Shown: positions 6,259 to 20,015, counted from the first letter of the stretch. The stretch is 52,827 bases of DNA from an uncultured Anaerolinea sp. (GCA_964571615.1 CAZNCT010000004.1:10758-63584), one strand, 5' to 3'. Notes: generated by a model not told the origin, from the letters alone. Program-made: numbers and translations.

Positions 6259-7899
6259 ATGCAAAACAACAAATTAAGAATTATTCCCCTGGGGGGCCTG
6301 GGGGAAGTAGGCAAAAATATGATGGCCTACGAATTTAACGACCAGATTTTGCTGGTCGATGCTGGTTTAATGTTCCCAGATAATGACATGCTCGGGGTGG
6401 ACTATATCATCCCTGACTTTGAATATCTATACGACAAAAGTCATAAAATTGCAGGCATTATCATCACGCATGGGCACGAAGACCATATTGGCGCCATTCA
6501 CCATGTCTTACGCCAAATTCCGGCCCCTATTTTTGGCACCCCGCTAACCCTGGGGCTGGTAGAGGTCAAACTGGCGCGCAATGGCATGGCATCTAAGGCC
6601 GAACTACGCCAGGTGCAGGCCGGTGAAACTGTTCAGATTGGCCCCTTCAAGGTGGAGTTCTTTCACGTCAGCCACTCCATTCCCGATGCAGTTGGCCTGG
6701 CGATTGAAACCAGTGCGGGATTGGTGGTACACACCGGTGATTATAAATTTGACCATACCCCGGTCGATAACTGGCCAACCGATTTTGCCAAACTGGCGGA
6801 ACTCTCTACCCGTGGGGTGCACCTGCTGCTCTCTGACTCGACCAATGCCGAGCGCCCCGGTTGGATGCCTTCGGAGCGGGTGATCGAACCGGCCCTCGAC
6901 CAGGTAATCAAAAACGCCCGCGGACGGGTCATCATTGCCACCTTTGCCTCGCTCATCTCGCGGATGCAGCAGGTAGCCGATGCCGCCGTTCGTCATGGGC
7001 GCAAGCTGGCCTTTGCAGGCAGCAGCATGGTCGATAATGCCAAAATGGCGCGCAAACTGGGCTACCTGAAGGTGCCCGATGAAACCCTGGTCACCCTCGA
7101 AACAGCCCTCAACCTGCCCGACGCGCAAGTGATTTTGATGTGCACCGGCTCTCAAGGGGAACCTTCCTCAATCATCGGGCGGCTTTCAGCCGGAACCAAC
7201 CGTCAGTTTGACCTGAAACCCAACGATACGGTCGTTTTGTCGTCACATCCTATCCCGGGCAACGAGGAAGCGGTCAGCAAAACTATTAACCGCATGTTGC
7301 GGATTGGTGCCGATGTCATTTATGATGCCATTGCGCCGGTGCATGTTTCAGGACACGCCAGCCAGGAAGAGCAAAAACTGATGCTCAACCTGGTACGGCC
7401 CAAATATTTCATGCCTATTCATGGAGAGCTGCGGCAACTGAAACGCCATGCGGCCCTGGCCCGTCAGGTGGGCATTCCGGCAGAGAATATTTTTGTGGCC
7501 GAAAACGGCCAGGTCATTGAAATGGACAATGGAGTGGTCAGCATGGGTGAGCGCATTCCGGGCGGCTATGTGTTTGTGGAAGGCGGCTCGGTAGGCGACA
7601 TGGATCGCAACATCTTGAAAGAGCGCGAACAACTGGCGCGTTCTGGCATCCTGCTCATCAACCTGGGGATTGATAAATTTTCAAACCGTCTGCTCGAAGA
7701 ACCTGAAATCATCACGCGCGGGTTTGTCTCTGCCGAAGAAGCCGAGACCATCCTGCCGGCGGTACGCAAACGAGTGGTAGATGTCATTCATGGGGGCGGA
7801 TTTAATGTCGAAAAAGACATTGTAGATGTGGTGCGTTCGTTTGTGTATAACGAGACCAAACGCCGCCCGCTGGTTTTCGTGACCATGACCAAAGTTTAA
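6259..7899 (+). CDS. rnj: ribonuclease J
   Basis: 546 aa. It has the metallo-beta-lactamase motif ITHGHEDHIG, a beta-CASP region and the C-terminal domain typical of RNase J. Confidence 0.92.
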   Translation: MQNNKLRIIPLGGLGEVGKNMMAYEFNDQILLVDAGLMFPDNDMLGVDYIIPDFEYLYDKSHKIAGIIITHGHEDHIGAIHHVLRQIPAPIFGTPLTLGLVEVKLARNGMASKAELRQVQAGETVQIGPFKVEFFHVSHSIPDAVGLAIETSAGLVVHTGDYKFDHTPVDNWPTDFAKLAELSTRGVHLLLSDSTNAERPGWMPSERVIEPALDQVIKNARGRVIIATFASLISRMQQVADAAVRHGRKLAFAGSSMVDNAKMARKLGYLKVPDETLVTLETALNLPDAQVILMCTGSQGEPSSIIGRLSAGTNRQFDLKPNDTVVLSSHPIPGNEEAVSKTINRMLRIGADVIYDAIAPVHVSGHASQEEQKLMLNLVRPKYFMPIHGELRQLKRHAALARQVGIPAENIFVAENGQVIEMDNGVVSMGERIPGGYVFVEGGSVGDMDRNILKEREQLARSGILLINLGIDKFSNRLLEEPEIITRGFVSAEEAETILPAVRKRVVDVIHGGGFNVEKDIVDVVRSFVYNETKRRPLVFVTMTKV

Positions 7900-7921
7900 A
7901 CTGGCTGTCATTAAATATCGC

Positions 7922-7956
7922 AAACAGGGCTATCCATCAGATAGGTAGCCCTGTTT
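7922..7956. terminator. hairpin between convergent genes (probable bidirectional terminator)
   Basis: AAACAGGGCTA...TAGCCCTGTTT. Confidence 0.5.
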
Positions 7957-7977
7957 GGAAAAAAGCAGACCCGCAGG

Positions 7978-8409
7978 CTACAGGTCAAAACGGTAAACGT
8001 TGGTCTCCCAGCGCTTAAAGCCCAGGCGCTGATACAGGCGGTTGGCGGCCTCGCGGCGAGGATTCGAGGTCAGCGCGAGGTAGTTGGCGCCAAGTTCACG
8101 CGCCAGGCGAATCACCTCCAGCGTCAGCGCCGCACCAAGCCCCTGTCCGCGGGCCGACTGATCGACGATGACATCTTCAAGGCGGGCATGAACACCTGTC
8201 GGAACCCGAATCAGGCTGAGGGTGGCCGCGCCGATAATCGGCCCATCCTCCACAAGACGCGCAATCAGCAGAATACTGCCTTCAAAGGCCACCAGCGCAT
8301 CCAAATCGGCCCGGGTTGGCGGGGGAACATTGGTTGTTAGTTGTGGTATCAGGCGCTGAAAGGCTTCAAAAATTTCATCGCTAACGGCGGTAACACGTGT
8401 GATTTGCAT
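7978..8409 (-). CDS. GNAT family N-acetyltransferase
   Basis: The acetyl-CoA binding motif is VDQSARGQGLGAAL. I prefer the ATG at 8409 (MQITRV) because it is preceded by GGAGAG. The track start at 8421 is a TTG. Confidence 0.85.
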   Translation of the reverse strand: MQITRVTAVSDEIFEAFQRLIPQLTTNVPPPTRADLDALVAFEGSILLIARLVEDGPIIGAATLSLIRVPTGVHARLEDVIVDQSARGQGLGAALTLEVIRLARELGANYLALTSNPRREAANRLYQRLGFKRWETNVYRFDL

Positions 8410-8582
8410 GAGACTCTCCAAAGATGTATTGAATGAGGCGGCCTTGGCAGGTATTTCCTGTTTCGTTGATAGGAAAGCGGGGCTATATTCAATCTGACTT
8501 TGTCAGGGTACAATTAACCAAATTTTAACAATATTTTAAGCCCGAGTTGCGCAGAATCGCACTGCTGCTGCATTGATAATAA

Positions 8583-8607
8583 GGTGTAATTTGTGCGAAT
8601 TTACACC
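8583..8607. promoter_or_regulatory. 25-bp near-perfect palindrome upstream of the response-regulator operon
   Basis: GGTGTAATTT-GTGCG-AATTTACACC, with 9 of 10 arm positions complementary. Confidence 0.35.
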
Positions 8608-8712
8608 CAAAGGTATACTATAAGGTTAGAAACTTCGGGCCATGAAGAATGATACGCAATTTGATAGGGTTTTCCACGTAGGCGGCCAAGGCTTTTCTCA
8701 CGAGGGGGGTTC

Positions 8713-9399
8713 GTGAAGAAAATCCGCGTATTGGTGGTAGAAGACCACAATGTGGTAAGAGAGGGGCTGGTGGCGATTTTGTCGTTCCAGTCCGATATCG
8801 AGGTGGTGGGGCAAGCCAGCAACGGCCTCGAGGCTGTGCAAATGCTGCACCAGACCAAACCACATGTGGTCTTATTAGACTTGGTTATGCCCAAGCATGA
8901 TGGTCTGGGGGCAATTCCGAAAATTAAACAAATTTTACCGGATACACAGATTCTCGTCCTCTCCGGTTTTGCAGAGGGCGATTTAATCTTTAACGCCATC
9001 AAAGCCGGGGCTATCGGCTATATGCTCAAAGACACCACCCGTGAGCAATTGTTCCAGGCCATTCGAGATGTCTCTGAGGGGCTGGCCTCACTGCCTCCAT
9101 CAACCGCCCTGCGTGTGATTCGTGAAATCAACAACCCGAAGCCAGTCGAAGACGTCACCGCCCGACTGACCCAGCGCGAACTCGATACGCTGCGGCTGAT
9201 TGGACGCGGTTACAGCAACCAGGAAATTTCGGCAGAACTGGTGGTCAATGACCGCACGGTAGCCAAGTATGTCAGCAGCATCCTTTCAAAACTGCACCTG
9301 GCAAACCGCACCCAGGCGGCCCTTTACGCACTGCGCGAAGGTTTGACCGAAGAGCCTGCGGCCAAATCCGCCAAAGACAAAGACAGTGGATGGGAGTAA
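8713..9399 (+). CDS. NarL/FixJ-family response regulator (REC plus LuxR-type HTH)
   Basis: The REC domain reads VLVVEDHNVVREGL...LLDLVMP. The C-terminal LuxR HTH reads LTQRELDTLRLIGRGYSNQEISAELVVNDRTVAKYVSSILSKL. The start codon is GTG. Confidence 0.9.
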   Translation: MKKIRVLVVEDHNVVREGLVAILSFQSDIEVVGQASNGLEAVQMLHQTKPHVVLLDLVMPKHDGLGAIPKIKQILPDTQILVLSGFAEGDLIFNAIKAGAIGYMLKDTTREQLFQAIRDVSEGLASLPPSTALRVIREINNPKPVEDVTARLTQRELDTLRLIGRGYSNQEISAELVVNDRTVAKYVSSILSKLHLANRTQAALYALREGLTEEPAAKSAKDKDSGWE

Positions 9400-9403
9400 C
9401 TGA

Positions 9404-9832
9404 ATGGAAAGCCCGGCCAATACCCTATTTGATGAAATTCGCCAGGCCGTGCGCTGGAACCGTCCTTCCATTCTGGTAGCGGTGACGGCCTCGGCGGCTC
9501 TCCGCAAGCAGGCTCAGCAAGCCCTGAGTGAGCGGCTCGAAACGCTTGGTCAGGCAATTGTGCCTTATGTGGTCACCCCGCAAACGTTTGATATTCCCCT
9601 GCAACTGGCGCGCCACCCACAAAGAGAGAAAGCCGTCTTTTTTGTCTCGCGGCTCAATCGCGGTGGCGGTACGCAGAACCATAACGCCTTTAAGGCCCTG
9701 AATATGCGGCGTGAACTGCTGGTCGATTACCCAACCCGGGTCATCTTCTGGCTTTCACCAGCTGAAGCAAAAGCACTGGCGCGCCTGTCGCCCGATTTTT
9801 GGGCCTTCAGGCATGCCAGCCTGGAATTTTGA
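9404..9832 (+). CDS. uncharacterised ~140-aa domain protein, paralogous to the N-terminus of the TPR protein at 14826
   Basis: 142-aa ORF wedged between the RR and the HK, with a 4-nt gap upstream and a 2-nt gap downstream. It shares LxDEIRxAxxWxxPSxLxA ... AF...EL.D.P..IF ... P.FW..R...F with 14826..17213. Confidence 0.7.
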   Translation: MESPANTLFDEIRQAVRWNRPSILVAVTASAALRKQAQQALSERLETLGQAIVPYVVTPQTFDIPLQLARHPQREKAVFFVSRLNRGGGTQNHNAFKALNMRRELLVDYPTRVIFWLSPAEAKALARLSPDFWAFRHASLEF

Positions 9833-9834
9833 GT

Positions 9835-11412
9835 ATGCCATCTCTTCTTCTCCCGACCCTGGCCGGGGTGGCTGGCCTGGCCATTCTTGCGGTCATTTTC
9901 TGGCTGATGCTGCGCACCCGAGGGCAGCCCCAAAAGCACTCGCAATTCAATCGCGCCAAGGCGATTGAAACGGTCAAAGTCGGCTGGATGGCACTTGACC
10001 GTGAAAACAAGATTGTTGACCTCAACCCTTTCATGGAAATTGTCCTGGGGCAAAACATCAACCAGTTGCTTGGCAAGCCCGCAGAGCAGGTTTTGAGCAA
10101 TTTCAACATCTTACGCGAGGGCAAAATCAGTACCCCCATTGCGGCGACCGCCAATTTTAATGGCTTCACTTATTCGTTTGAAGTTCACAGCCTGGACTAC
10201 CTGGACGAGAACGGACAGGTTGCGGGGCATTTGCTGCTCTGGCAGGATGTGACCGAAAAGAGAAAACTGGACGAAATGCGCTACCGCGCCTCGGCGGCGA
10301 AAATCAACCTGATGCGCTCGATTTCTTTTGCCGCCAGTCATATTACCGACCTGAAAATTTTCCTGGAGGCCTCGCTCTTTCAGATTGTCTCCAGTTACGG
10401 CGGCCTGGCCGGTTTTATTGTTACGCGAAATTCGGAGTTTTTGGGCGACACGAGAGCGCCTTTCAAGATAGATGCCGCCTACAGTTACACCGATGCGCTT
10501 GATGAAACCCGCATTTTGAGAAACCTGGGGCGCTCTTTTTTCTCGCTAGGCCCCGAAAGCCGCAACATTCAAACCATCCCCCTGCGCTCCGATGAAATTG
10601 TGATTGAGCGCGGGCATGCGCCCATCGATGGGGCTTTGCTGATTTGCCCCATTTTGATTGATGAGCATCTGCAAGGTGTGATTGGCATTTACCGTGACAA
10701 CCAGCAACCTTTCAGCCGCGATGAAATCAACAGCCTCGATATGATTGCCAACGAACTGGCAATGCTCATCTATGTTGACCATCAGCGCCGCCAGGCTTTG
10801 TCTTTTTCAGAACGCAAAAAACTGGTGCGCGACCTGCACGATACCGTCACCCAGCAGATTTATGGATTGCTCTACCAGGTTGAGATTGCTCAGGCACAGG
10901 CCGAGCGGGAGAAGTTTGAAGAACTGCCCGCCTCGCTGGTCAAAATTGGCGATTCGGCCCGTCAGGCCTTGCGCGAAATGCGCCTTTTTATGCATGAATT
11001 ACAGCCGGTGGATTTGAAAGAAGAGGGATTGGTCTCAGCCCTGCACCGCCGCCTGACCTCGGTGGAGGGCCGCGCTAACCTGCAAATGCGCTTTATTGCG
11101 CCTGATTCATTACAACTCTCAAACCAGCAAGAATTGGTTCTGTATCAAATTGCGCGCGAGGCGCTCAACAATGTTTTGCGGCACTCACGGGCCAGGCATG
11201 TGACTGTGAACCTGAAACAAGGACGGCGCCTTACCTGCCTGGAAGTGCACGATGATGGCATCGGATTTGACACCGGCGCGCTATCTGACTCTGGGGGAAT
11301 GGGCGTAAAAAATATGCGCGAATGGGCACGTCAGGGGCATGCCCGGTTGCGCATTCGGTCAGGCCCTGGGAAGGGTACAATCATCAAGGTACTGGTGCCG
11401 CACCAGCCATAA
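9835..11412 (+). CDS. sensor histidine kinase (TM, PAS, GAF, HisKA_3, HATPase_c)
   Basis: Start at ATG 9835 (MPSLLLPTLAGVAGLAILAV), immediately after the upstream stop. The HisKA_3 H-box is LVRDLHDTVTQQIYGL. The ATPase region contains ...REALNNVLRHS...DDGIGF...GGMGVKNM. Confidence 0.88.
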   Translation: MPSLLLPTLAGVAGLAILAVIFWLMLRTRGQPQKHSQFNRAKAIETVKVGWMALDRENKIVDLNPFMEIVLGQNINQLLGKPAEQVLSNFNILREGKISTPIAATANFNGFTYSFEVHSLDYLDENGQVAGHLLLWQDVTEKRKLDEMRYRASAAKINLMRSISFAASHITDLKIFLEASLFQIVSSYGGLAGFIVTRNSEFLGDTRAPFKIDAAYSYTDALDETRILRNLGRSFFSLGPESRNIQTIPLRSDEIVIERGHAPIDGALLICPILIDEHLQGVIGIYRDNQQPFSRDEINSLDMIANELAMLIYVDHQRRQALSFSERKKLVRDLHDTVTQQIYGLLYQVEIAQAQAEREKFEELPASLVKIGDSARQALREMRLFMHELQPVDLKEEGLVSALHRRLTSVEGRANLQMRFIAPDSLQLSNQQELVLYQIAREALNNVLRHSRARHVTVNLKQGRRLTCLEVHDDGIGFDTGALSDSGGMGVKNMREWARQGHARLRIRSGPGKGTIIKVLVPHQP

Positions 11413-11432
11413 TTGCATCTACAAACAAAGGT

Positions 11433-11473
11433 AAAAAAAACACCATCAGAGTGCATCTTGATGGTATTTTTTT
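11433..11473 (+). terminator. intrinsic terminator after the kinase gene
   Basis: A-run, stem ACCATCA/TGATGGT, then TATTTTTTT. Confidence 0.7.
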
Positions 11474-11947
11474 ATCCATTTTCGGGGTCAAAAACAGGCA
11501 TTTTTATACCCATTTTGTGACCAATTATGGGGCACAAACAGGCTTTTACTGCCCTATTTCTGCCCGCAAATTAGGCCACATTAAGGCAAAAAACTGTCAC
11601 TTAAGCGAAAAAGATTGTCTCTTTTTGCCCACAATCTGACCCCAAAAATTCGCAAAAACAATCCAATAAGCGCATCAATTCCAGCGCCAAAAAGCGCAAA
11701 TCTTACGCAAAATCATGCTCTTTTTCACCGCCATAAACGCACATTTCACCGCCCCAAAACCCTATTCCTGTCACCCCAAAATAGCGTCAGAACAGCAGGC
11801 AAAAACGCAGAAATGCCATACTAATTCAGCCACTAAAACCAAGAAAAATCAACCCAAATTGCCATACTTCCTTCATTATGCGCAATTTATAACAAAGAGA
11901 TAATCTGAGCAACATTACATTTCCATCTCAGCACGGGGTTTCCAGCC

Positions 11948-12376
11948 ATGTTACTTGGACGTCACCTGATCACCATCAACAAAAGAAAGGCATTCAGGAT
12001 GCCCGACATCCTGAGCCCGGGATTGTATTACCTGACCCAGGGCTTTGAGCAAAACCTGCTGCTGGTCTCAGAAGACAACTTCAGAGCACTGGCAAGAGAT
12101 TTCAGCCGCCTGAGTCTGACCGACCCATTGAGCCGCTTGCTCTCGCGCCTGGTACTTGGCAATGCCGCGCAGGTGCGCATCGAAGAAAACCTGAGCATTC
12201 AGATTCCTGAGCGCCTGCTGGAATTTGCCCAGATTTCTAGAGAAATGTTGCTGGTTGGACAAGGCAGTTACTTTGAAATCTGGTCACCCGAACTCTGGCA
12301 GGAACAGGAACAACGCCTGCGCGAAACCCACCTGAACGCCGACCGTTTCCACTCGATACAAATCAGCCTGGCCTGA
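11948..12376 (+). CDS. mraZ: divergent MraZ-like (UPF0040, SpoVT/AbrB-type) transcriptional regulator
   Basis: 142 aa. The segment LLSRLVLGNAAQVRIEENLSIQIPERLLEFAQISREMLLVGQGSYFEIWSPELW aligns with the second half of MraZ (E. coli [51 protein letters not shown], recalled from memory). Both DxxxR motifs are degenerate. Confidence 0.65.
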   Translation: MLLGRHLITINKRKAFRMPDILSPGLYYLTQGFEQNLLLVSEDNFRALARDFSRLSLTDPLSRLLSRLVLGNAAQVRIEENLSIQIPERLLEFAQISREMLLVGQGSYFEIWSPELWQEQEQRLRETHLNADRFHSIQISLA

Positions 12377-12411
12377 ACTAAACACAGCATTCGTCACAGA
12401 GGAGACCTGAA

Positions 12412-13572
12412 ATGACCGTTATTGGCATCGATATTTCAAAATGGAACGGCGATTGGGACGCCAAAAAGGCCCGGGCGGCTGGGGCGCACTTTGTCTTTAT
12501 CAAATCTTCGCAGGCGACCTTCACCGACCCGCGCTTCCTTGCCAACTGGCGCAAAGCGCGTGAAGCCGGGTTACTGCGGGGCGCCTATCACTATCTTGAT
12601 TACACCCAATCGGGCGTAGACCAGGCCCGTTACTGCCTGAGCCTGCTGGAAGACGACCCCGGCGAATTGCCGATGGTTGTAGATTTTGAACATCCACGCG
12701 AAGATAACAATGCAGCCGCCGCCCGCTCGTACCTGAAGCAGTTTGTAGAATACGCGCTCGAACAAGGTCAGACGCCAATAATTTACACATCTCCCGCGTT
12801 CTGGAAATCATACGGTGACCTTTCGACGTACTGGTATCAGTTCCCCCTCTGGATTGCCCACTACACCGTTGCCTCTGCGCCCATCGTCCCGCCGCCGTGG
12901 CTGTCGTGGAAATTCTGGCAATTCTCCAAAAAAGGCCCGGGGCAATTGTTCGGCAGTGAAGCCCTCGACCTGGATGTTAACCGCTTCAACGGCAGTCTCG
13001 AAGAGTTGTACGAACTTGCCAGGCGAAAACCTGATACTGGCACCAGCCTCGGAGAGCGCCTGGTGGCTCTCGAAACGCGCCTGGCCTCGCTGGAAAAAGC
13101 CTTACAGCAGGCCGGTCTGGCAGATACGCCGCCAATTGAAAATACAGATAACGCCGAAGGAGAGCCAGAACCAGAACCGGAAGAGGATTTGAAACAGGCA
13201 ATTGTCATTCAAGACGATACCCCGGTTTACCTGGGGCCCTTTACCGTGCTCAGCGCTGTAGCGCGGCTGAAGCGCAACACACCAGTCGAAATCATTGACA
13301 GCCAATCGGGCTGGTCGAAAATCAAGTCTCCGGCAGGCTGGGTTGAAAATCAGGCCTTGAAAATAGCCGCAGAGACACCCGAAGAAAACGAGGGTTATCT
13401 GGTCTGTCGGGTCAGCGCCCTGAACGTGCGCGCCGGGCCGGGCAGCGCGTTTCCGGTGATTGGCTGGCTGCAAAAAGGCCAACGTGTCAGGGTGCTTGAA
13501 CGCAGTAACGGCTGGGCACAGCTCCAATCGCCTGCCGGTTGGAGCATGGAAACTTATCTCGGACCTCTGTAA
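12412..13572 (+). CDS. GH25 muramidase (lysozyme) with two C-terminal SH3b-like domains
   Basis: The N-terminus GIDISKWNGDWDAKKARAAGAHFVFIKSSQ...DFE... is GH25-like. An acidic linker follows. The two repeats read GWSKIKSPAGWVENQAL and GWAQLQSPAGWSMETYL. SD GAGGAG lies upstream. Confidence 0.85.
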   Translation: MTVIGIDISKWNGDWDAKKARAAGAHFVFIKSSQATFTDPRFLANWRKAREAGLLRGAYHYLDYTQSGVDQARYCLSLLEDDPGELPMVVDFEHPREDNNAAAARSYLKQFVEYALEQGQTPIIYTSPAFWKSYGDLSTYWYQFPLWIAHYTVASAPIVPPPWLSWKFWQFSKKGPGQLFGSEALDLDVNRFNGSLEELYELARRKPDTGTSLGERLVALETRLASLEKALQQAGLADTPPIENTDNAEGEPEPEPEEDLKQAIVIQDDTPVYLGPFTVLSAVARLKRNTPVEIIDSQSGWSKIKSPAGWVENQALKIAAETPEENEGYLVCRVSALNVRAGPGSAFPVIGWLQKGQRVRVLERSNGWAQLQSPAGWSMETYLGPL

Positions 13573-13579
13573 GGCGAGT

Positions 13580-14848
13580 ATGGAATTTATTACCGCTGTT
13601 GACTTCGACCGCGCCTGGTTGAATTTTGAACTCGACCTGCCCCTGCCCGCCGGAAAAAACGGCGAACCCAACCCGTTTTATGTGAACCGGCCCGGCAACC
13701 CCATCTCAGACCTGACCGATGCCCTGATGGCGCCGCTTTATCGCCCGCCCAAGTTCTATTTTTCGGGGCATCGTGGCTGCGGCAAATCTACCGAGCTGTT
13801 ACACATTATGGCCTCCAGCCAGATACGCAGCAAATACTGGCCGATTAATTTCAGCATCCGCGAAGAGGCCGACATCATTGACCTCGATTTTCTCGATATT
13901 CTGCTGGCCATTGGCGGGCGCATGTATCGCGCTTACCGCAAACGCGGCGGCGACTTGCCTGAAAAACTGCTCAAAGACCTCGACGGCTGGAAAGGCAAGG
14001 TGGAGCAGGAAATTCGCACAGTGCTGGTCGGTCAGGTAAACGGCTACGAGTTGGGCGCCTCGATTGATGCGTTTTTCTTCAATGCCGGGCTAAAAATGAA
14101 ACTGGAACCGGCCACGCGCATCGAGTTGCGCCAGGTGATTGAGAAAGACATTACCGGCCTGATTGGCGTCATCAACAGCATTGCGGCGGCCATTTATGCC
14201 CGCGAAAAACGCATCCCGCTGATTCTGATTGATGACCTCGACAAGCCCGACCTGGAAATTGCGCGTTCCATCTTCCATGACCGGCGCGAAATCATGATGC
14301 AGCCCAACTGTGCAATTGTCTACACCGTTTCGAGCGCCTTGTTTTACAGCAAAGAATTTGATGCCATTCGAGACCAGGCTATTTTTTTGCCCAACATCAA
14401 CCTGCACAGGCCGCTTTCGCCCGAAAGCCACGATGAAGAAGGCTACGCCACCATGCGCCAGTTTGTCCGCAGCCGCATGGCCGCCCACCTGATTGAACGC
14501 CAGGCACTCGATGCAGCCATCTCTTATAGCGGCGGCGTTTTTCGTGAAATGGCGCGCATTATGCGCACCACGCTGGGGCGCGCGCGCCGCCGGGGTGCCC
14601 GGCAAATTGAACAGGAAGACGTAGAAATGGCGGCTACCGAAATCCGCAATGAATACCGCCGCATTCTGGATAAAAATGACCTGAACTTCTTACGCAAAGT
14701 CCACGAGCACAACCGGCTCGAGTACAACGACAGGCTGCGGCCGCTGATGCAATTACTGGCCATCCTGGAATATCGAAACGGCGATAACTGGTGTGACATT
14801 CACCCCGTATTGAGGAGATTAATCTATGACCAGCGAGACCATCCTTGA
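13580..14848 (+). CDS. P-loop NTPase, ORC/Cdc6- or STAND-like AAA ATPase with a C-terminal winged-helix-like region
   Basis: Start at ATG 13580, 8 nt after the lysozyme stop. Walker A is GHRGCGKST and Walker B is LILIDDLDK. The C-terminus reads ...LLAILEYRNGDNWCDIHPVLRRL. Confidence 0.7.
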   Translation: MEFITAVDFDRAWLNFELDLPLPAGKNGEPNPFYVNRPGNPISDLTDALMAPLYRPPKFYFSGHRGCGKSTELLHIMASSQIRSKYWPINFSIREEADIIDLDFLDILLAIGGRMYRAYRKRGGDLPEKLLKDLDGWKGKVEQEIRTVLVGQVNGYELGASIDAFFFNAGLKMKLEPATRIELRQVIEKDITGLIGVINSIAAAIYAREKRIPLILIDDLDKPDLEIARSIFHDRREIMMQPNCAIVYTVSSALFYSKEFDAIRDQAIFLPNINLHRPLSPESHDEEGYATMRQFVRSRMAAHLIERQALDAAISYSGGVFREMARIMRTTLGRARRRGARQIEQEDVEMAATEIRNEYRRILDKNDLNFLRKVHEHNRLEYNDRLRPLMQLLAILEYRNGDNWCDIHPVLRRLIYDQRDHP

Positions 14849-17213
14849 AACCATGCCCCATTACCCTTCCGTTGAAGACGGCATTGCCGCACTTCTGGAT
14901 GAAATCAGACTGGCAATGCAATGGCGCAAGCCCGCTTCGCTGATAGCCATTCACCGTCAGCCCGGTACCCAAAGCCGCGCCATCGAAGCGCTCACCCAGG
15001 CCCTGGCCAAAGATGGCGCCAGGCTTTACGTCCTGAACGCAAATGAAATTACCCTCGATGAATTTTTGCAAATGACCCGCCAAAACAACGAGCCAGAGCC
15101 AAAAGTTTACCTTATCGAAAATGTCATGGCGCACGATAGCCCAGGGGCATCCCAAACCTGGTTAGCATTTGGCGCACACCAGGAAGAATTAGACCACCAA
15201 CCCGCCCAAATCATTTTCTCGATGGGTGAGCAGAATCTGGTCAAACTGGTGCGCGATTTTCCAGCCTTTTGGGAAAACCGCTACCGGGTGATTGACTTTA
15301 CCGGCGCAAGCGAGGAGACTCTCGCGCACGAGCCCACCACAACCGCAAATGCCCCCGACAGCGAAGATCTGGGCGCCGCCCTGACCCGCGAGGCGCGCGA
15401 AAATCTGATGAGCGGCGTGCTGGAATGGAAAAATCACGACCTTGAGAGCGCCTGCCAGTATTTACAGAATGCTGTCGAACTGGCCGAAGTCGCCTCAGAT
15501 GCGAACCTGCAAATAGAGTGCTACACAGCCCTGGCCCTGGCGCTGATGGAGAAAGACGCCACCACCGAAGCGATTGATGCCTACCAGAAAATCGTTGAAC
15601 TCAACCCGGCCTCGGCCCTGCCCTGGAACAACCTGGGGAATCTGTATTTGCGCCTGCGGCATTACGAGCAAGCCGAACACGCCTTCCGCCAGGCGCTTGA
15701 ACACAACCCGACCAACCCGGTCAGTTGGGCCGGGCTGGCAGACCTGCGAACGCAAACAGGCCGGCATCGTGAAGCCATCCGGGCCTATCAGAAAGCCTTA
15801 CAATCCGCGCCCGAATACAAAGAAGCCTGGTTTGGGCTGGCGCTAACCCTTGAAGCCCTCGGGCATCCCGCAAAAGCCACCAAGGCCTATAAAATGGTTC
15901 TTCAAAAAGACCCGGCCTACGTTGAAGCCTGGCTGCGGCTTGCACGGCTGTACCACCGCAAGCACAAAGTTCAAGACGCGCTCGGCATTTTGCACAAAGC
16001 GCTCGAATATTCGGCACACTCGTTTGAACTGTGGGCCGAGTTGGGCCGCCTGGCCGAAGGCCAGGACAAAGCACTGGCCGCAGAAGCCTACAAAAAAGCC
16101 CTGGCAATTAACCCGCGCCACGGAAAAACTTACTGCCTGCTGGCCCGTGTCCACAAGGAGATGGGCAATAACCTGGATGCCATCAACTGCTACGAGATTG
16201 GGATTAATTTCCTCGAGGAAGACCACGAACGGGCTGCCGCCTGGGGAGATTTGCTCAGCCTGCTGGCCGAAAGTGTTCCGCCCGTTGCCGCCGCACCCGA
16301 ACCCGAAGTGCTGGCCGAGGCCGCGCTGGAACGCATCGAAATCCAGGCGGATCCAACCCCGACCTTGACGCCCGCTGAGGCCCCAGAATGGCTGGAGATC
16401 CCCGAAACAACCGGCACCCCGGCCCCGCTCATCCAACCCATCCAGCCGCTCAATTTTGAAGCCGAAAAGGAAGACCTGCGCCCTGGTGAAACGCCCATTG
16501 CAGTCCTTGAAAACCTGCCCGAGCTGTTTGAGAATGAACCGCTTTCGGCCCCGGCCTGGTTCACAAACCCGCAGCGCCTTGAACAGGAACTGCGCTATGT
16601 ATCCATGCTGCGAACGGCCCGTTCACGACACGAGCAAATCAAACTGCTCTCTGATGCACTGCTCGAAAGCCCACGAGCCGAATTCTGGCAGCCGCGCAAA
16701 AAAGTCCGCCAGGGAGTGGCCCGCAAAACCGAAGAATTCGCCCAGCCCGCTGCACTGCCCGAAAGCGGCCCGGCAGACCAGCCTGTCCTGTATCAGGCCG
16801 AGGAACTGGAACTGGACGACTTTCTGCCGCGCGTTGAGCATGAAAAAGAATCCCGGGCCTGGATACGCCAGGGAAAACGCCTGCTCAAACAAGGGTTATA
16901 CGATGACGCCCTCTCGGCTTTTACGGCGGCCATTCAGGCTGCGCCCAGCCTGGGAGAACCCTACATCAACCTGGGCGTGACCTACTTCCTGAAGAGCAAG
17001 TATGAGCAAGCCATCATCCAGTTCTACAAGGGCATTGAGCTGACCCGCGACCTGGAGCAAAAATCGCTGGCCTGGAACTATATCGGTGACGCCTACCGGC
17101 GGCTGCATGACCGCGACAATGCACTGCGCGCGTACCAGAAAGTCTCCGAGCTCAACCGCAGTGCTAACCCGCTCAGACAGCGGGCCAGACAAGTGCTGGC
17201 CTTTGGCAACTAA
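14826..17213 (+). CDS. TPR-repeat protein with an N-terminal uncharacterised domain paralogous to 9404..9832
   Basis: 795 aa. GAGGAG lies 8 nt upstream of ATG 14826, which overlaps the ATPase stop by 23 nt. There are about 8 TPRs in residues ~200-470 and more at the C-terminus (YINLGVTYFLKSKYEQAI..), separated by an acidic/proline-rich spacer. Confidence 0.8.
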   Translation: MTSETILETMPHYPSVEDGIAALLDEIRLAMQWRKPASLIAIHRQPGTQSRAIEALTQALAKDGARLYVLNANEITLDEFLQMTRQNNEPEPKVYLIENVMAHDSPGASQTWLAFGAHQEELDHQPAQIIFSMGEQNLVKLVRDFPAFWENRYRVIDFTGASEETLAHEPTTTANAPDSEDLGAALTREARENLMSGVLEWKNHDLESACQYLQNAVELAEVASDANLQIECYTALALALMEKDATTEAIDAYQKIVELNPASALPWNNLGNLYLRLRHYEQAEHAFRQALEHNPTNPVSWAGLADLRTQTGRHREAIRAYQKALQSAPEYKEAWFGLALTLEALGHPAKATKAYKMVLQKDPAYVEAWLRLARLYHRKHKVQDALGILHKALEYSAHSFELWAELGRLAEGQDKALAAEAYKKALAINPRHGKTYCLLARVHKEMGNNLDAINCYEIGINFLEEDHERAAAWGDLLSLLAESVPPVAAAPEPEVLAEAALERIEIQADPTPTLTPAEAPEWLEIPETTGTPAPLIQPIQPLNFEAEKEDLRPGETPIAVLENLPELFENEPLSAPAWFTNPQRLEQELRYVSMLRTARSRHEQIKLLSDALLESPRAEFWQPRKKVRQGVARKTEEFAQPAALPESGPADQPVLYQAEELELDDFLPRVEHEKESRAWIRQGKRLLKQGLYDDALSAFTAAIQAAPSLGEPYINLGVTYFLKSKYEQAIIQFYKGIELTRDLEQKSLAWNYIGDAYRRLHDRDNALRAYQKVSELNRSANPLRQRARQVLAFGN

Positions 17214-17256
17214 TCCGCCCGGCACAACCTTACCCTCGAGGACAGGCAGGCAAAAT

Positions 17257-18585
17257 ATGTACATTCCAACAATTCTCAATTTTCTGATTGGTATGCTCTT
17301 CATCTGGCTGGTCACCAGCCTGGTGGTGATGTTCATTCACGAATGGCTGGCAACCCGCCTGAAATGGCGCCCCAAAATGCTCGAAACCACCATTCGCAAT
17401 ATGCTCTCCGACCCGGCCCTGACCGACCAGTTATACAACCATCCGCTTATTCGCAGTCTGTATAGCGGGCCCGATGGCGCATCAAAACCATCTTACATCC
17501 CTGCCAGCCAGTTTGCGCAAGCCCTGATGGATATTGTCGTCAACGCCGCATCAGAAGCCTCGCTGTACCAGCACTATCTTTACAAATTGCGCTGGGAGTT
17601 GCCCCGGCTCGACCCCAAAGAACGCCCTGAAGCCCAAAAACGGCTCAACCTGCTGCTGGCCCTGACGCGCCGCGCCCTGGCAGCGGCCCCCGACCCCGCA
17701 ACGCAAGACACCCTGCTGGAAGAAATCCGCAGCGGGCTGACAGACCTGGCCGAAGGATACCCGGCCCTGAAAACGCCCATTGAAAGCGTCCTGGGCACGG
17801 TGGGTATTCAGCAAAACCAGATTCGGGAGGCCATCAAGGCCAGCGAAGGCGATAGAAGCACCGAAACCGGGCCAATTCCGGCCAACCGTTACCGCAGCGG
17901 ACTGGCCGCCCTGAGCGTAACTCACCCGCGCCTGAAACAAACGCTGGGCGCCTTGCTAAGCGAACTGATCAATGCCAGCATCGAAAGCGAAAATGGCCTC
18001 TTTCGCGCCCGCCAAAATTTGGAAGAATGGTTCAACAACAGCATGGATCGGCTGACAGGCTGGTATCGGCGGCGCGCCCAAACCCTGGCCTACACAATTG
18101 CCTTGCTGGTCGCCCTGGTGCTCAATATCGACTCCATTCAACTGGCGCAAACGCTCTGGCAAGACCCCGTCAGCGCTGCCCGCCTGGCTGATGAAGCCGC
18201 CCTGGTTGCTCAAAACCCATCCATTCAAATTTCTGAAGACGCTCAGCGGATTTTGCAAGAACAAATTTACAAAACCTGGTATCTCAGCCTGCCAATTGGC
18301 TGGATTGGCCTGCCGGTTGACCCCATTCTGACCCCGTCCCCGCTCTGCCCCTGGGAAATAGCCCCCGACCTGAGCGGCGTGCGCTTGTTTGGACAGTGTT
18401 ACCCGCTCCTGAACCTACCCGCCAACGCCTCGCTGATAGGCTGGCTGGCAAAACTGGCTGGTCTGGTTATCACAGGCATTGCCGCAGCCCAGGGAGCGCC
18501 GTTCTGGTTCGATTTGCTCAAAAAAGTGGTCAACATTCGCATGACCGGCGCAAACCCGGTGGAAACCAAGCGCGTTTTTGGCTAA
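17257..18585 (+). CDS. hypothetical integral membrane protein (N-terminal TM, central TM, C-terminal TM ending in the GAPFWFDLLKK motif)
   Basis: Start at ATG 17257, after the TPR stop. TM segments are ILNFLIGMLFIWLVTSLVVMF, LAYTIALLVALVLNI and LAGLVITGIAAAQGAPFWF. Confidence 0.65.
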   Translation: MYIPTILNFLIGMLFIWLVTSLVVMFIHEWLATRLKWRPKMLETTIRNMLSDPALTDQLYNHPLIRSLYSGPDGASKPSYIPASQFAQALMDIVVNAASEASLYQHYLYKLRWELPRLDPKERPEAQKRLNLLLALTRRALAAAPDPATQDTLLEEIRSGLTDLAEGYPALKTPIESVLGTVGIQQNQIREAIKASEGDRSTETGPIPANRYRSGLAALSVTHPRLKQTLGALLSELINASIESENGLFRARQNLEEWFNNSMDRLTGWYRRRAQTLAYTIALLVALVLNIDSIQLAQTLWQDPVSAARLADEAALVAQNPSIQISEDAQRILQEQIYKTWYLSLPIGWIGLPVDPILTPSPLCPWEIAPDLSGVRLFGQCYPLLNLPANASLIGWLAKLAGLVITGIAAAQGAPFWFDLLKKVVNIRMTGANPVETKRVFG

Positions 18586-18618
18586 AACTGCCCATCATCT
18601 TGTTTTACGGAGAGAACC

Positions 18619-19314
18619 ATGTCTGCCATTCCCCAACACGTCACCGATGTCATCAATTCGCTCATTGAAGCCTACCCAACCGGCCTGCCGGAGGGCATTC
18701 AAATCAACATCAACCTGTCGGTGCCACTTGAAGCCACGCAAGGACAGGCCGTCAGCGCCAGCATTCAGGGAGCCTCATCCCTTCCGGTTACACAAACAGC
18801 CCCCAGCGTCGAGCCGCCAGCCGCCCCAGCCTACAAAGGGCCTTTCCTGGGATTGTATCGCGTGATTGCGCGAAACCCATCGAAGCGCATCAAAATCCGC
18901 TCCGATTTTGATATGGCAGCCCCCGAAGCCAGCGTGCACCTGACCCCCAGACAATACGAATTTATTCGCGCCCTGAACGCCAGCCGCCCTCAATATCTCG
19001 AAAACAATGGCTACATTTACCGGTCTGAGGATGGCTTACCGTACACCTTTTATAAACAGTTCGGCTACAACAACCAACTGCTGGTCATCTCTGAAATCAA
19101 ACGGGTGGGTTCGGCGGTCATGGGGCGTGTGGTTGGCATCGGAGAAGACCCCTATCTTTCAGACCCCAAACCACTCGACCCAGCAGTCACCAACCACAAA
19201 ACAACCCCCTGGCTGGTTCATCTGATTGAAGACTTGCAGGTTTACGCCCCCATCCTGACTGCAGACAGTTCGCCGGGCTGGGTCAATATGCAGGAAGTGG
19301 AAAAAGTGCGGTAA
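18619..19314 (+). CDS. hypothetical protein with no recognisable family
   Basis: 231-aa ORF with SD GGAGAG. It is the last gene before the terminator at 19315-19352. Confidence 0.6.
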   Translation: MSAIPQHVTDVINSLIEAYPTGLPEGIQININLSVPLEATQGQAVSASIQGASSLPVTQTAPSVEPPAAPAYKGPFLGLYRVIARNPSKRIKIRSDFDMAAPEASVHLTPRQYEFIRALNASRPQYLENNGYIYRSEDGLPYTFYKQFGYNNQLLVISEIKRVGSAVMGRVVGIGEDPYLSDPKPLDPAVTNHKTTPWLVHLIEDLQVYAPILTADSSPGWVNMQEVEKVR

Positions 19315-19352
19315 ATAAAAAAAGATGGCCTCACTCAAGAGGCCATCTTTTT
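19315..19352. terminator. bidirectional intrinsic terminator that overlaps the 3' end of the aldolase gene
   Basis: A7, AGATGGCCTC-ACTCAA-GAGGCCATCT, then T6. Confidence 0.8.
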
Positions 19353-20015
19353 TCGTAGTTCATGCAGTTTTTCAAGCATTTCAGGGGGCAGGTGATGAAT
19401 GCGGCCCAAGCCCTGAGCCAGGACAATCACCCGGGCGACATGCTCAACCCGCTCAAGGTGAATCAGGGCTTCTTCCAGGTCACGTCCAACCGTCAGGGCG
19501 CCGTGATTGCGAATCAGCACCGCGTTATGACCCCGAATCGGTTCACGAATCGCGGCTGCATTTTCTTCACTGCTGGGGGTGGCAAAATCGGTGGTCGGAA
19601 CAGGGCCAAGCCCCTCAAGCAGCTCGGGCAGGACATCTTCAGGAAACGGTATGCCAGCGACGGTGAGCGCGGTCGCGTACGCCGGGTGGGCATGGATGAC
19701 CGCCCGAACATCGGGCCGCTGGCGATAGGCTTCGAGGTGCATCGGCGTTTCTGACGAAATGCGGTGTTTCTTGCGCGGGTTCGATTTCAAAACCCGGCCT
19801 TCCAGGTCAATCACCAGCAAGTCATCCAACTCGAGGCGGCCTTTGCAAAGCGTTGAGGGCGTTATCACCAGGCGGTCTTCGCCCATGCGGGCTGAAATGT
19901 TGCCGTTATTGGCAGGCATCAGCCCCTGGGCATAGCACAAACGCCCGGCTTCAACGACTGCTATTCGCAAGTCGCGCTCGGTGGCTAACTGGCTAAAACG
20001 GAGCAGGCTCGACAT
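19335..20015 (-). CDS. class II aldolase/adducin family protein (fuculose-phosphate aldolase or MTRu-1-P dehydratase-like)
   Basis: 226 aa containing ..NNGNISARMG.., ..SSETPMHLEAY.. and ..VIHAHPAYATAL... Confidence 0.85.
   Translation of the reverse strand: MSSLLRFSQLATERDLRIAVVEAGRLCYAQGLMPANNGNISARMGEDRLVITPSTLCKGRLELDDLLVIDLEGRVLKSNPRKKHRISSETPMHLEAYRQRPDVRAVIHAHPAYATALTVAGIPFPEDVLPELLEGLGPVPTTDFATPSSEENAAAIREPIRGHNAVLIRNHGALTVGRDLEEALIHLERVEHVARVIVLAQGLGRIHHLPPEMLEKLHELRKKMAS

Follow-up and report, generated by a model that had tools for sequence, protein, structure and literature searches.

Several described systems come close to the locus reported here. Two papers on conflict systems of multicellular prokaryotes describe EAD-linked effectors as well as an nSTAND2 two-gene operon, in which an active STAND protein is paired with an inactive one (Kaur et al., 2020, PMC7159879; 2021, PMC8195603); lysozyme-like effectors are also known from conflict systems of multicellular bacteria (PMC7159879). 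The other likenesses are to the Orc1/Cdc6 ATPases, the Sll1717 and KAP NTPases, the MalT/LAL regulators and the holin-endolysin pairs of phages. KAP NTPases typically carry a transmembrane insert in the P-loop domain. The locus lies in a 52,827 nt stretch of DNA from an uncultured Anaerolinea sp. (GCA_964571615.1, CAZNCT010000004.1:10758-63584), which as a whole is referred to here as the window. It holds five packed genes, for a GH25 muramidase, an AAA+ ATPase, a tetratricopeptide repeat (TPR) protein, a protein with three transmembrane (TM) segments and a soluble protein. Judged from sequence, the deeply conserved unit is a widespread, undescribed two-gene pair, formed by the ATPase and a domain, called ND, at the N-terminus of the TPR protein. 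We tentatively propose that the ATPase and TPR protein make up an ATP-gated switch, which would control a holin/endolysin-like wall-opening pair consisting of the muramidase and the 3-TM protein. The genes and domains are as follows.

12412-13572, + strand: G1, leaderless muramidase of the GH25 family, ending in a pair of SH3b wall-binding domains (open reading frame (ORF) call; Pfam, PHROG, alignment).
13580-14848, + strand: G2, Orc1/Cdc6-like AAA+ ATPase ending in a winged helix, which forms the core pair with ND (ORF call; AlphaFold2 (AF2), Foldseek, motifs).
14826-17213, + strand: G3, the ND-TPR protein (ORF call).
14826-15305, + strand: ND domain, the N-terminal ~160 aa of G3 (ND hidden Markov model (HMM)).
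15306-17213, + strand: TPR arrays of G3, at about residues 190-470 and 680-790, with a Pro/Glu-rich linker between them, a variable region that would act as sensor or scaffold (Pfam TPR_1/TPR_2, 1e-46).
17257-18585, + strand: G4, 3-TM membrane protein with PSYIP, MDRxxGWYKR and GAPFWFD motifs, presumed partner of the muramidase (ORF call; hydrophobicity, AF2).
18619-19314, + strand: G5, a 231-aa soluble protein (ORF call).

The window proteins were mapped onto 80 genome loci and 80 metagenome loci, with an 11-sequence alignment as the query for the metagenome scan. There is an ND protein directly downstream of the ATPase in 89 of 95 Anaerolineales-type loci (in two more the partner was called only as TPR) and in all 24 distant loci, where the ATPase is 27-35% identical to the window protein. 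The pair is present in every lineage sampled, to ATPase identities as low as 27-30%, and in independent database gene calls the two genes overlap or are separated by 8, 35, 23, 4 and 3 nt; we read them as translationally coupled. Co-localisation of ATPase and TPR genes across genomes had been set beforehand as a check on the original prediction, and the partner was found directly downstream in 91/95 and 24/24 loci. The predicted trio of ATPase, TPR protein and membrane protein did not emerge as the conserved unit; the deeply conserved unit is instead the ATPase with the ND domain.

The part of the partner that follows the ND domain is variable. It may be a TPR array (341-1200 aa) or, in L088, a STAND-STAS module, and in L087 it is missing altogether (a 163-aa protein). 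G3 is only 23-43% identical to its orthologues in comparison with 67-89% for the ATPase. The L088 partner (6708-8528) reads as ND-AAA_16/NB-ARC-STAS. The parts also occur fused, as ATPase+ND+TPR in P0139, as ND+ATPase in P0207 and as ATPase+TPR in P0127. Distant clades have the pair among unrelated housekeeping genes, and it is therefore a self-contained two-gene cassette. In L101 (6809-12202) and L106, for example, the ATPase/ND-TPR pair sits between pyruvate:ferredoxin oxidoreductase (PFOR) alpha-type (POR_N/PFOR_II) and thiamine pyrophosphate-binding beta-type genes, and the beta-type gene holds an intein splicing domain. L098, the metagenome contig Ga0255429_1027, has two family ATPase genes, one followed by its ND-TPR gene and the second copy straight after it, which indicates tandem duplication of the cassette.

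The ND consensus is ...ELELAxxWxRPSILLAVYxSE...VFFVxGL...LNxxRE...RxVFWLT...APDFWAFRHRVxEF, and a homologue search returned 11 close matches. There is no match to ND in Pfam, NCBIfam, PADLOC, PHROG or the PDB. Comparison of ND with the ATPase family by hhalign gave no profile relation, and ND has no detectable relation to STAND or AAA+ domains; there is therefore no support for an origin of ND by decay of an ATPase copy. A domain common to the gene at 9404-9832 and the TPR protein had been predicted, and this is confirmed by alignment and by tblastn, in which the 9404-9832 query matches the upstream paralogue and the N-termini of TPR proteins; its product also fits the ND HMM and has no Pfam, NCBIfam or PHROG match. 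Two ND proteins are present in 46/79 loci, and by analogy with EADs the doubled domain could act as an adaptor.

The ATPase had been predicted to be ORC/STAND-like with a winged-helix tail, and structure prediction agrees. The AF2 model of G2 (predicted local distance difference test score (pLDDT) 92.8; predicted template modelling score 0.91) has the Orc1/Cdc6 architecture, in which the AAA+ base and lid are followed by a winged helix at the C-terminus (a helix-helix-helix-β-hairpin tail). The top Foldseek matches in the PDB are archaeal Orc1/Cdc6 structures, 2qby_A (E 7.9e-7, TM-score 0.46/0.52), 1fnn_A and 1w5t_A, with E at about 1e-6 but TM-scores of only 0.40-0.52, and these are followed by RdrA, TnsC and RuvBL. 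Walker A (GHRGCGKS) occupies residues 63-70 and Walker B reads LILIDDLD. Across the ATPase family, G63, G68 and K69 in Walker A, D219 in Walker B, T249 in sensor 1, R299 and G318-G319 are invariant or nearly so. The conservation of Walker A, Walker B, sensor 1 and R299, together with the fold, leads us to read G2 as a predicted active AAA+ enzyme. There is no hydrophobic segment in the protein.

No family in Pfam, NCBIfam, PADLOC or PHROG fits the window ATPase and a sequence search of the PDB gave nothing significant. Among 47 relatives there are weak matches to AAA_16 (37), the Sll1717 family NF047389 (31; best 1.6e-9), KAP_NTPase PF07693 (19; best 1.8e-12), the Orc1/Cdc6 models TIGR02928 (10) and PF24389 (six), and nSTAND_NTPase5, NACHT or NPHP3_N (three to 10). 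Homologues at least 70% identical to G2 occur in more than 100 metagenome-assembled genomes (MAGs) labelled Anaerolineales, Anaerolineae or Chloroflexota. An exhaustive HMMER search with the ATPase gave 2,372 clusters (50% identity) at E <= 1e-3 and 203 at E <= 1e-30, including a Thermodesulfobacteriota 'P-loop NTPase fold protein' and a Promineifilaceae protein; there are no relatives in the phage, plasmid or IMG/VR collections. Four contigs labelled otherwise, L016, L023 (labelled Gallionella sp.), L080 (Pseudomonadota) and P0396 (Bacteroidetes), are probably mis-binned MAG contigs. They carry typical Anaerolineales-type loci with 70-71% ATPase identity and with response regulator (RR) and MraZ-like neighbours.

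A neighbour-joining tree of the ATPase has three clades, which correspond to the three architectures MraZ-ATPase, MraZ-RR-ATPase and MraZ-GH25-ATPase. This match between clades and architectures is the pattern of vertical inheritance in Anaerolineales. In the same genome pairs, the median identity is 73-79% for the ATPase in comparison with 38-68% for the histidine kinase, MraZ-like protein, G4, GH25 and RR. For most neighbour families the ATPase is the more conserved partner in 91-100% of genome pairs, and most of the unrelated flanking genes are less conserved than the ATPase too. On these comparisons, the Anaerolineales ATPase is under strong purifying selection and is inherited vertically.

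The muramidase and the 3-TM protein are distributed differently. A single monophyletic clade, of ~36 loci, has GH25 and G4 together; among the 71 loci with enough sequence, 22 have both, two have GH25 only, four have G4 only and 43 have neither. G5 is found only in the closest relatives (L001, L002, L004 and L082/L083; at least 80% ATPase identity). The five genes had been put forward as one conserved module, and this view has to be given up, with GH25 and the 3-TM gene limited to one subclade and G5 to the closest relatives. The locus is instead, from gene content and sequence, a composite of three layers: an ATPase/ND core, an Anaerolineales regulatory layer and a clade-specific GH25/G4 layer. 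The true units are the ATPase/ND-TPR pair, the regulatory locus 8713-17213 and the GH25/G4 pair of one clade; G5 is a recent passenger.

G1 matches GH25 (PF01183) with E 4.3e-40 and 138 bits, against a cut-off of 27, and residues 6-175 align with positions 1-175 of the 180 in the model. The SH3b domains match SH3_3/SH3_4, PHROG endolysin families also match, and phage endolysins share 30-36% identity with the GH25 domain. All 35 GH25 orthologues begin MT(V/I)xG(I/V)D(I/V)SKW and most have an in-frame stop a few codons upstream. The shared start and the close upstream stop leave no room for a signal peptide, so the orthologues have none. Residues D7, D91, E93 and D188 are at least 95% conserved in 36 aligned sequences (the 35 orthologues and the window protein), and we take them to be the N-terminal Asp, the DxE motif and the C-terminal Asp of Cpl-1-type enzymes. 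With its catalytic acidic residues and its coverage of the family model, G1 is predicted to be an endolysin-like, cytoplasmically made, active muramidase. G5 gave no family, PDB or phage match (best PADLOC value 0.034) and is a recent accessory add-on.

G4 (442 aa) has hydrophobic segments at residues 1-33, 276-299 and 391-411, with GAPFWFDLL at residue 413. It matches no known Pfam, phage or defence family. Its AF2 model (pLDDT 81) consists of helices and a small β-hairpin, and Foldseek found no match to this model in the PDB or BFVD. The loop at 300-390, which has two invariant cysteines, probably lies outside and residues 35-270 in the cytoplasm, judging from these cysteines and from the positive-inside distribution of charges. 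A pattern scan found shorter G4-like proteins (~280-400 aa), all annotated as hypothetical, on two IMG/VR contigs and on plasmids of Rhizobium, Agrobacterium, Paracoccus, Caballeronia, Hymenobacter, Vitreoscilla and Nostoc. PSY, MDR..G.Y.R, N290, GW and GA.FWFD are invariant between G4 and the short relatives and this motif core is kept across phyla. The Anaerolineales form carries in addition a helical insert of roughly 130 aa.

The neighbours of the G4-like genes are informative. In Rhizobium phaseoli there is a leaderless CHAP/SleB-like 'cell wall hydrolase' directly upstream of the G4-like gene, and in Hymenobacter and Caballeronia a leaderless Amidase_2 protein with a peptidoglycan (PG)-binding domain is encoded directly downstream, after a 2-nt gap. 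Rhizobium NXC14 has a patatin-like phospholipase directly upstream and a divergent M15 peptidase nearby, and Nostoc has a PG-catabolic glycoside hydrolase at a distance of 2 kb. Together with the link to GH25 in the window, these gene orders repeatedly place G4-like proteins next to leaderless enzymes, of several classes, that degrade the envelope. The Caballeronia plasmid locus (L174, 1-1950) also has a LuxR C-terminal-related regulator near the G4-like/amidase pair, and an adenylate/guanylate cyclase-domain gene of ~3.3 kb on the opposite strand, echoing the regulator-rich context in Anaerolineales.

The regulatory layer and the signals around the five genes comprise the following features.

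8713-9399, + strand: LuxR-type RR, REC plus GerE helix-turn-helix (HTH) (Pfam Response_reg 1e-25, GerE 3e-14).
9404-9832, + strand: stand-alone ND protein, 142 aa, paralogous to the ND region of G3 (tblastn, ND HMM).
9799-11412, + strand: cytoplasmic histidine kinase, PAS-GAF-HisKA_3-HATPase_c (Pfam).
11442-11472, + strand: terminator-like hairpin and T-run, 3' of the kinase gene (consensus scan, sequence).
11473-11947: AT-rich intergenic region, presumed promoter/operator of a six-gene operon (GC content, sequence).
11948-12376, + strand: MraZ-like gene, first of the block (Pfam MraZ 9e-14).
19324-19353: bidirectional intrinsic terminator, 9-bp stem, 6-nt loop, flanking A-run/T-run (direct sequence reading).

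The five genes were described originally as tightly packed on one strand, preceded by an MraZ-like gene and closed by a terminator. All coordinates and gaps were reproduced (G1-G2, 7 nt; G2/G3, 23-nt overlap; G3-G4, 43 nt; G4-G5, 33 nt), the MraZ-like gene and the terminator are both present, and so are the Walker A motif, the three TM segments and GAPFWFDLL. The MraZ-like gene is 35 nt upstream of G1. There are Shine-Dalgarno-like motifs 5' of G1, G3 and G5, and homologues back the starts of G1 (35/35 GH25 orthologues beginning MT(V/I)xG(I/V)D), G2 (alignments begin at residue 1) and G4 (homologues cover 100% of the protein). Directly after the G5 stop is GATGGCCTC-actcaa-GAGGCCATC followed by T6, with an A-run on the 5' side. 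This terminator overlaps the stop of a convergent aldolase gene and, because an A-run precedes the stem, is read as bidirectional; the consensus terminator scan did not list it, probably because A/T pairs lengthen the stem into the T-run. The gene spacing, the Shine-Dalgarno-like motifs and the terminator fit a single transcript, and the MraZ-like gene and G1 to G5 are probably co-transcribed as one six-gene operon. The hairpin at 11442-11472 and the AT-rich gap of 535 nt between the kinase and MraZ-like genes suggest that a separate transcript, with a putative promoter, begins at the MraZ-like gene. GC content is 0.47 in 11473-11947 in comparison with a window mean of ~0.56.

The LuxR-type RR adjoins the MraZ-like/ATPase genes in most Anaerolineales-type loci, the histidine kinase is syntenic in at least 58 loci, and clustering identified the MraZ-like gene in 69 of 85 mapped sequences, window included. 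These three genes accompany the ATPase/ND pair only in the Anaerolineales type, where their association is kept in most loci despite rearrangements and outer flanks that are not conserved. It had been suggested that the functional unit might reach the RR, ND and kinase genes at 8713-11412, and the locus mapping bears this out.

The MraZ-like protein, which is of the AbrB/MazE-fold DNA-binding type, scores 51.6 bits against Pfam MraZ (cut-off 23) and aligns over its full length with TIGR00242 at 68.8 bits, under the equivalog cut-off of 98.35. In every locus where the gene was called, the next gene encodes GH25, an RR or the ATPase, and the order of the dcw cluster (mraZ then rsmH/mraW, ftsL/ftsI) is not found at these loci. 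This is probably a divergent member of the family, outside the dcw context. A literature search on MraZ in Chloroflexi found nothing relevant.

Repeats of CCCCAAAA upstream of the MraZ-like gene were considered as an MraZ box and dropped, as there is no enrichment across loci. A motif that is enriched, TGGTCATT (TGGTCA one to three times), precedes the MraZ-like gene in about half of the 97 loci, ~125-175 nt upstream of the start (e.g. L006, L021, L028, L034, L045, L072 and L081) and often with a TATAAT-like box ~70-90 nt after it. TGGTCATT may be an operator, bound by either the MraZ-like protein or the LuxR-type regulator. It is absent from 11473-11947 of the window and from the closest relatives of the window, which share CATTATGCG(C/A)AA...GATAAT instead. 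In RR-clade loci, Y1_Tnp-like (~188 aa) and Mrr_cat-like (~285 aa) genes are syntenic in ~20 genomes, upstream of the ND-TPR/histidine kinase genes (carriers include L021, L025, L029, L030, L034, L040, L043, L063, L065, L067, L079 and L081), and in L025, L065 and L078 a G4 homologue lies between the two.

The GC content of the block is unremarkable. The flanking genes scanned are housekeeping genes (RNase J, GNAT, class II aldolase, isoleucyl-tRNA synthetase, carbonic anhydrase and transketolase); there is no phage, integrase or holin family among those within the window, in line with the original prediction. An Rfam scan of the whole window found no RNA family, and long antisense ORFs, such as 13102-13671, were rejected as artefacts of the ORF lister. 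Elsewhere, an 821-aa protein with weak HerA/DUF87 helicase-ATPase matches is encoded at the window edge (1288-3753, - strand). A 900-aa ORF at 25263-27965 (- strand), adjoining transketolase, is a bifunctional fusion of transaldolase (2e-85) and phosphoglucose isomerase.

Our tentative proposal that the switch controls the wall-opening pair can be set out in steps. The ND domain would dock the TPR scaffold onto the ATPase, and a signal that the TPRs sense would be turned into an on/off state by ATP binding or hydrolysis. Expression may be set, and signals fed in, by the MraZ-like protein together with the LuxR-type two-component system, and the second ND protein possibly connects the kinase module to the switch. 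Acting like a holin or as a conduit, G4 would let the cytoplasmic muramidase reach the wall. The switch would gate this G4 step, possibly through the cytoplasmic helical insert that is specific to Anaerolineales. The output would be controlled peptidoglycan cleavage, leading to sacrificial lysis of a cell in the filament or to filament breakage.

Several observations weigh against this proposal. The switch is carried without GH25 or G4 by 43 of 71 Anaerolineales loci, so that muramidase control is not its primary function. GH25 and G4 are not adjacent to each other but flank the switch, and their co-inheritance within one clade is a single evolutionary event. G4 matches no holin family and is far larger than a holin. 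There is no wall hydrolase in three of the eight G4-like plasmid contexts (Paracoccus, Agrobacterium and Vitreoscilla). Finally, relatives with TIR, EAD8-PNPase or OLD-like domains point to immunity rather than development. As regards the trigger, we lean towards a physiological or developmental one over phage defence. The vertical inheritance and strong purifying selection of the ATPase argue against a typical mobile defence system, and the relatives with EAD8+PNPase, AAA_21/AAA_15 or an adjacent TIR_2 gene suggest an ancestry among conflict systems, as does the framework published for multicellular bacteria, with its lysozyme-like effectors (PMC7159879, PMC8195603).

The first alternative is anti-phage abortive infection, in which the ATPase and TPR protein would sense infection and trigger suicide through the muramidase and the membrane protein, as a defence system of the NTPase-sensor-effector type. 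The relatives are suggestive here: P0261 has EAD8 (5e-22) and PNP_UDP_1 fused to the ATPase, P0213 has AAA_21/AAA_15, and in L087 a pentapeptide-TIR_2 gene (7862-8947) is directly upstream of the ATPase, beside a PIN/MazE pair. The cassette is found in unrelated contexts in other phyla, as if mobile, its TPR partner diverges fast and RdrA is among the Foldseek matches of the ATPase. Peptidoglycan-hydrolase effectors have precedents in conflict systems of multicellular bacteria (PMC7159879). However, in PADLOC-DB v2 there is no match for G1, G2 or G4 and there are only generic TPR matches for G3, so that no described system is recognised, and the ATPase relatives gave only weak, generic matches (mad8, PifA or VakA). 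The lack of ATPase relatives in the phage, plasmid and IMG/VR collections also speaks against it. The Anaerolineales locus, moreover, is syntenic and vertical, with the ATPase as its most conserved gene, which is the opposite of typical defence-gene dynamics, and the window flanks are housekeeping genes and not a defence island. We consider abortive infection unlikely.

Alternatively, the ATPase, the TPR protein and one or more LuxR-type regulators might form a split MalT/LAL-type regulator that acts on DNA, so that GH25 and G4 would merely belong to its regulon with no post-translational gating. Consistent with this, AAA_16 is matched by the 37 family members noted above, partners in distant loci match TPR_MalT and, in the largest Anaerolineales clade, the GerE-type RR is directly upstream of the ATPase. 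The ATPase winged helix resembles that of the DNA-binding Orc1/Cdc6 proteins, and linkage to the MraZ-like DNA-binding protein is constant. However, the pair in distant clades has no DNA-binding partner nearby and in no relative examined is a LuxR HTH fused to the ATPase or its partner, and the probability of such a regulator appears low.

It is also conceivable that the operon combines two unrelated functions. GH25 and G4 would then be an ordinary autolysin, used for example in daughter-cell separation under control of the MraZ-like protein, with the ATPase and TPR protein unconnected. In favour of this, most loci carry the switch without GH25 or G4, G4-like genes elsewhere are paired with hydrolases in the absence of such an ATPase, and GH25 and G4 were gained in a single event. 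Against it, GH25 and G4 were inserted on either side of the switch and have been kept there through divergence to ~40% identity, and the gaps are tight or overlapping. Additionally, three RR-clade loci have G4 elsewhere in the same extended locus, without GH25. We think it improbable that the two functions are unrelated.

A remnant prophage lysis cassette, or a holin/endolysin-type (type 10-like) secretion device, is highly improbable and the cassette was rejected. The GH25 domain does resemble phage endolysins in identity and PHROG families, G1 is leaderless and G4-like proteins occur on two IMG/VR contigs. On the other side, there are no phage genes in the flanks scanned, nothing in 50,697 phage records matches G2, G4 or G5, many species share the locus by vertical descent, and there is no evident cargo gene. 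The phage, plasmid and IMG/VR searches also gave no ATPase relatives; a simple lysis cassette had been considered unlikely from the start.

The proposal of a switch controlling the wall-opening pair can be extended. G4-like proteins, whose motifs are common to Chloroflexota, Proteobacteria, Bacteroidota and Cyanobacteria, might be a new holin-like class that lets leaderless hydrolases cross the membrane. In the Anaerolineales clade of the window they would be gated directly by the new, very widespread ATPase/ND switch, in a chromosomally fixed, signal-controlled machine for suicide or filament severing in a multicellular bacterium. This wider reading is possible but doubtful. The locus does appear, from the searches, to hold two undescribed families, ATPase/ND and G4-like. 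Defining the first would annotate thousands of 'hypothetical' gene pairs and would give a case of a module with conflict-system relatives that has become strongly conserved and vertically inherited in a multicellular lineage. The pairing of G4-like proteins with leaderless hydrolases suggests a possible non-phage route of cytoplasmic muramidases and amidases to the wall, and so has implications for bacterial autolysis, filament fragmentation and programmed cell death. Members of the Anaerolineales are difficult to grow in culture.

Compared with known systems, the ATPase is closest in fold to Orc1/Cdc6 and the Cdc6/Orc-STAND AAA+ clade, with which it shares the AAA+ base, lid and winged helix, intact Walker A and B, sensor 1 and a conserved arginine. 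It differs in having no significant sequence membership (the window protein matches neither TIGR02928 nor PF24389) and low TM-scores, and in being bacterial, always paired with an ND protein and outside any replication-origin context. The Sll1717 and KAP NTPases are the best named sequence neighbours. However, G2 scores 15.7 bits against the NF047389 cut-off of 75, and it has neither a PF07693 match nor a transmembrane insert; the literature on Sll1717 offered nothing relevant. The MalT/LAL STAND regulators resemble the locus in having an AAA_16-like ATPase, a TPR sensor and a LuxR/GerE HTH. In the window these parts are on separate genes and the HTH is on a phospho-receiver, in contrast with MalT/LAL proteins, and distant pairs have no HTH partner. 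The window ATPase matches no STAND model and the TPRs are on a separate protein, so that it does not qualify as a STAND protein.

The likeness to phage holin-endolysin systems lies in a leaderless muramidase with wall-binding domains that is co-inherited with a multi-TM protein, and in the recurrence of the G4 family beside leaderless hydrolases of three enzyme classes. G1 lacks a secretion signal, as expected of an endolysin that depends on a membrane partner. G4, on the other hand, is not a small holin of a known family: it has 442 aa and a large cytoplasmic helical domain, and matches no holin family or structure. The context is not that of a phage, and the GH25 and G4 genes are separated by the ATPase and TPR genes.

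Finally, the conflict systems of Kaur et al. can be compared. A description of the ATPase/ND family was not found in the parts of PMC7159879 and PMC8195603 that were consulted, and no EAD family in Pfam is matched by the window proteins. In common with those systems, the locus has a constant NTPase and a second constant module fused to variable parts, relatives with EAD8-PNPase, TIR and OLD-like domains, and a filamentous multicellular host. It differs in that ND is a domain of only ~160 aa with no detectable STAND or AAA+ relation. In further contrast, the Anaerolineales locus is vertically inherited and highly conserved, and it includes an MraZ-like gene and a two-component system.

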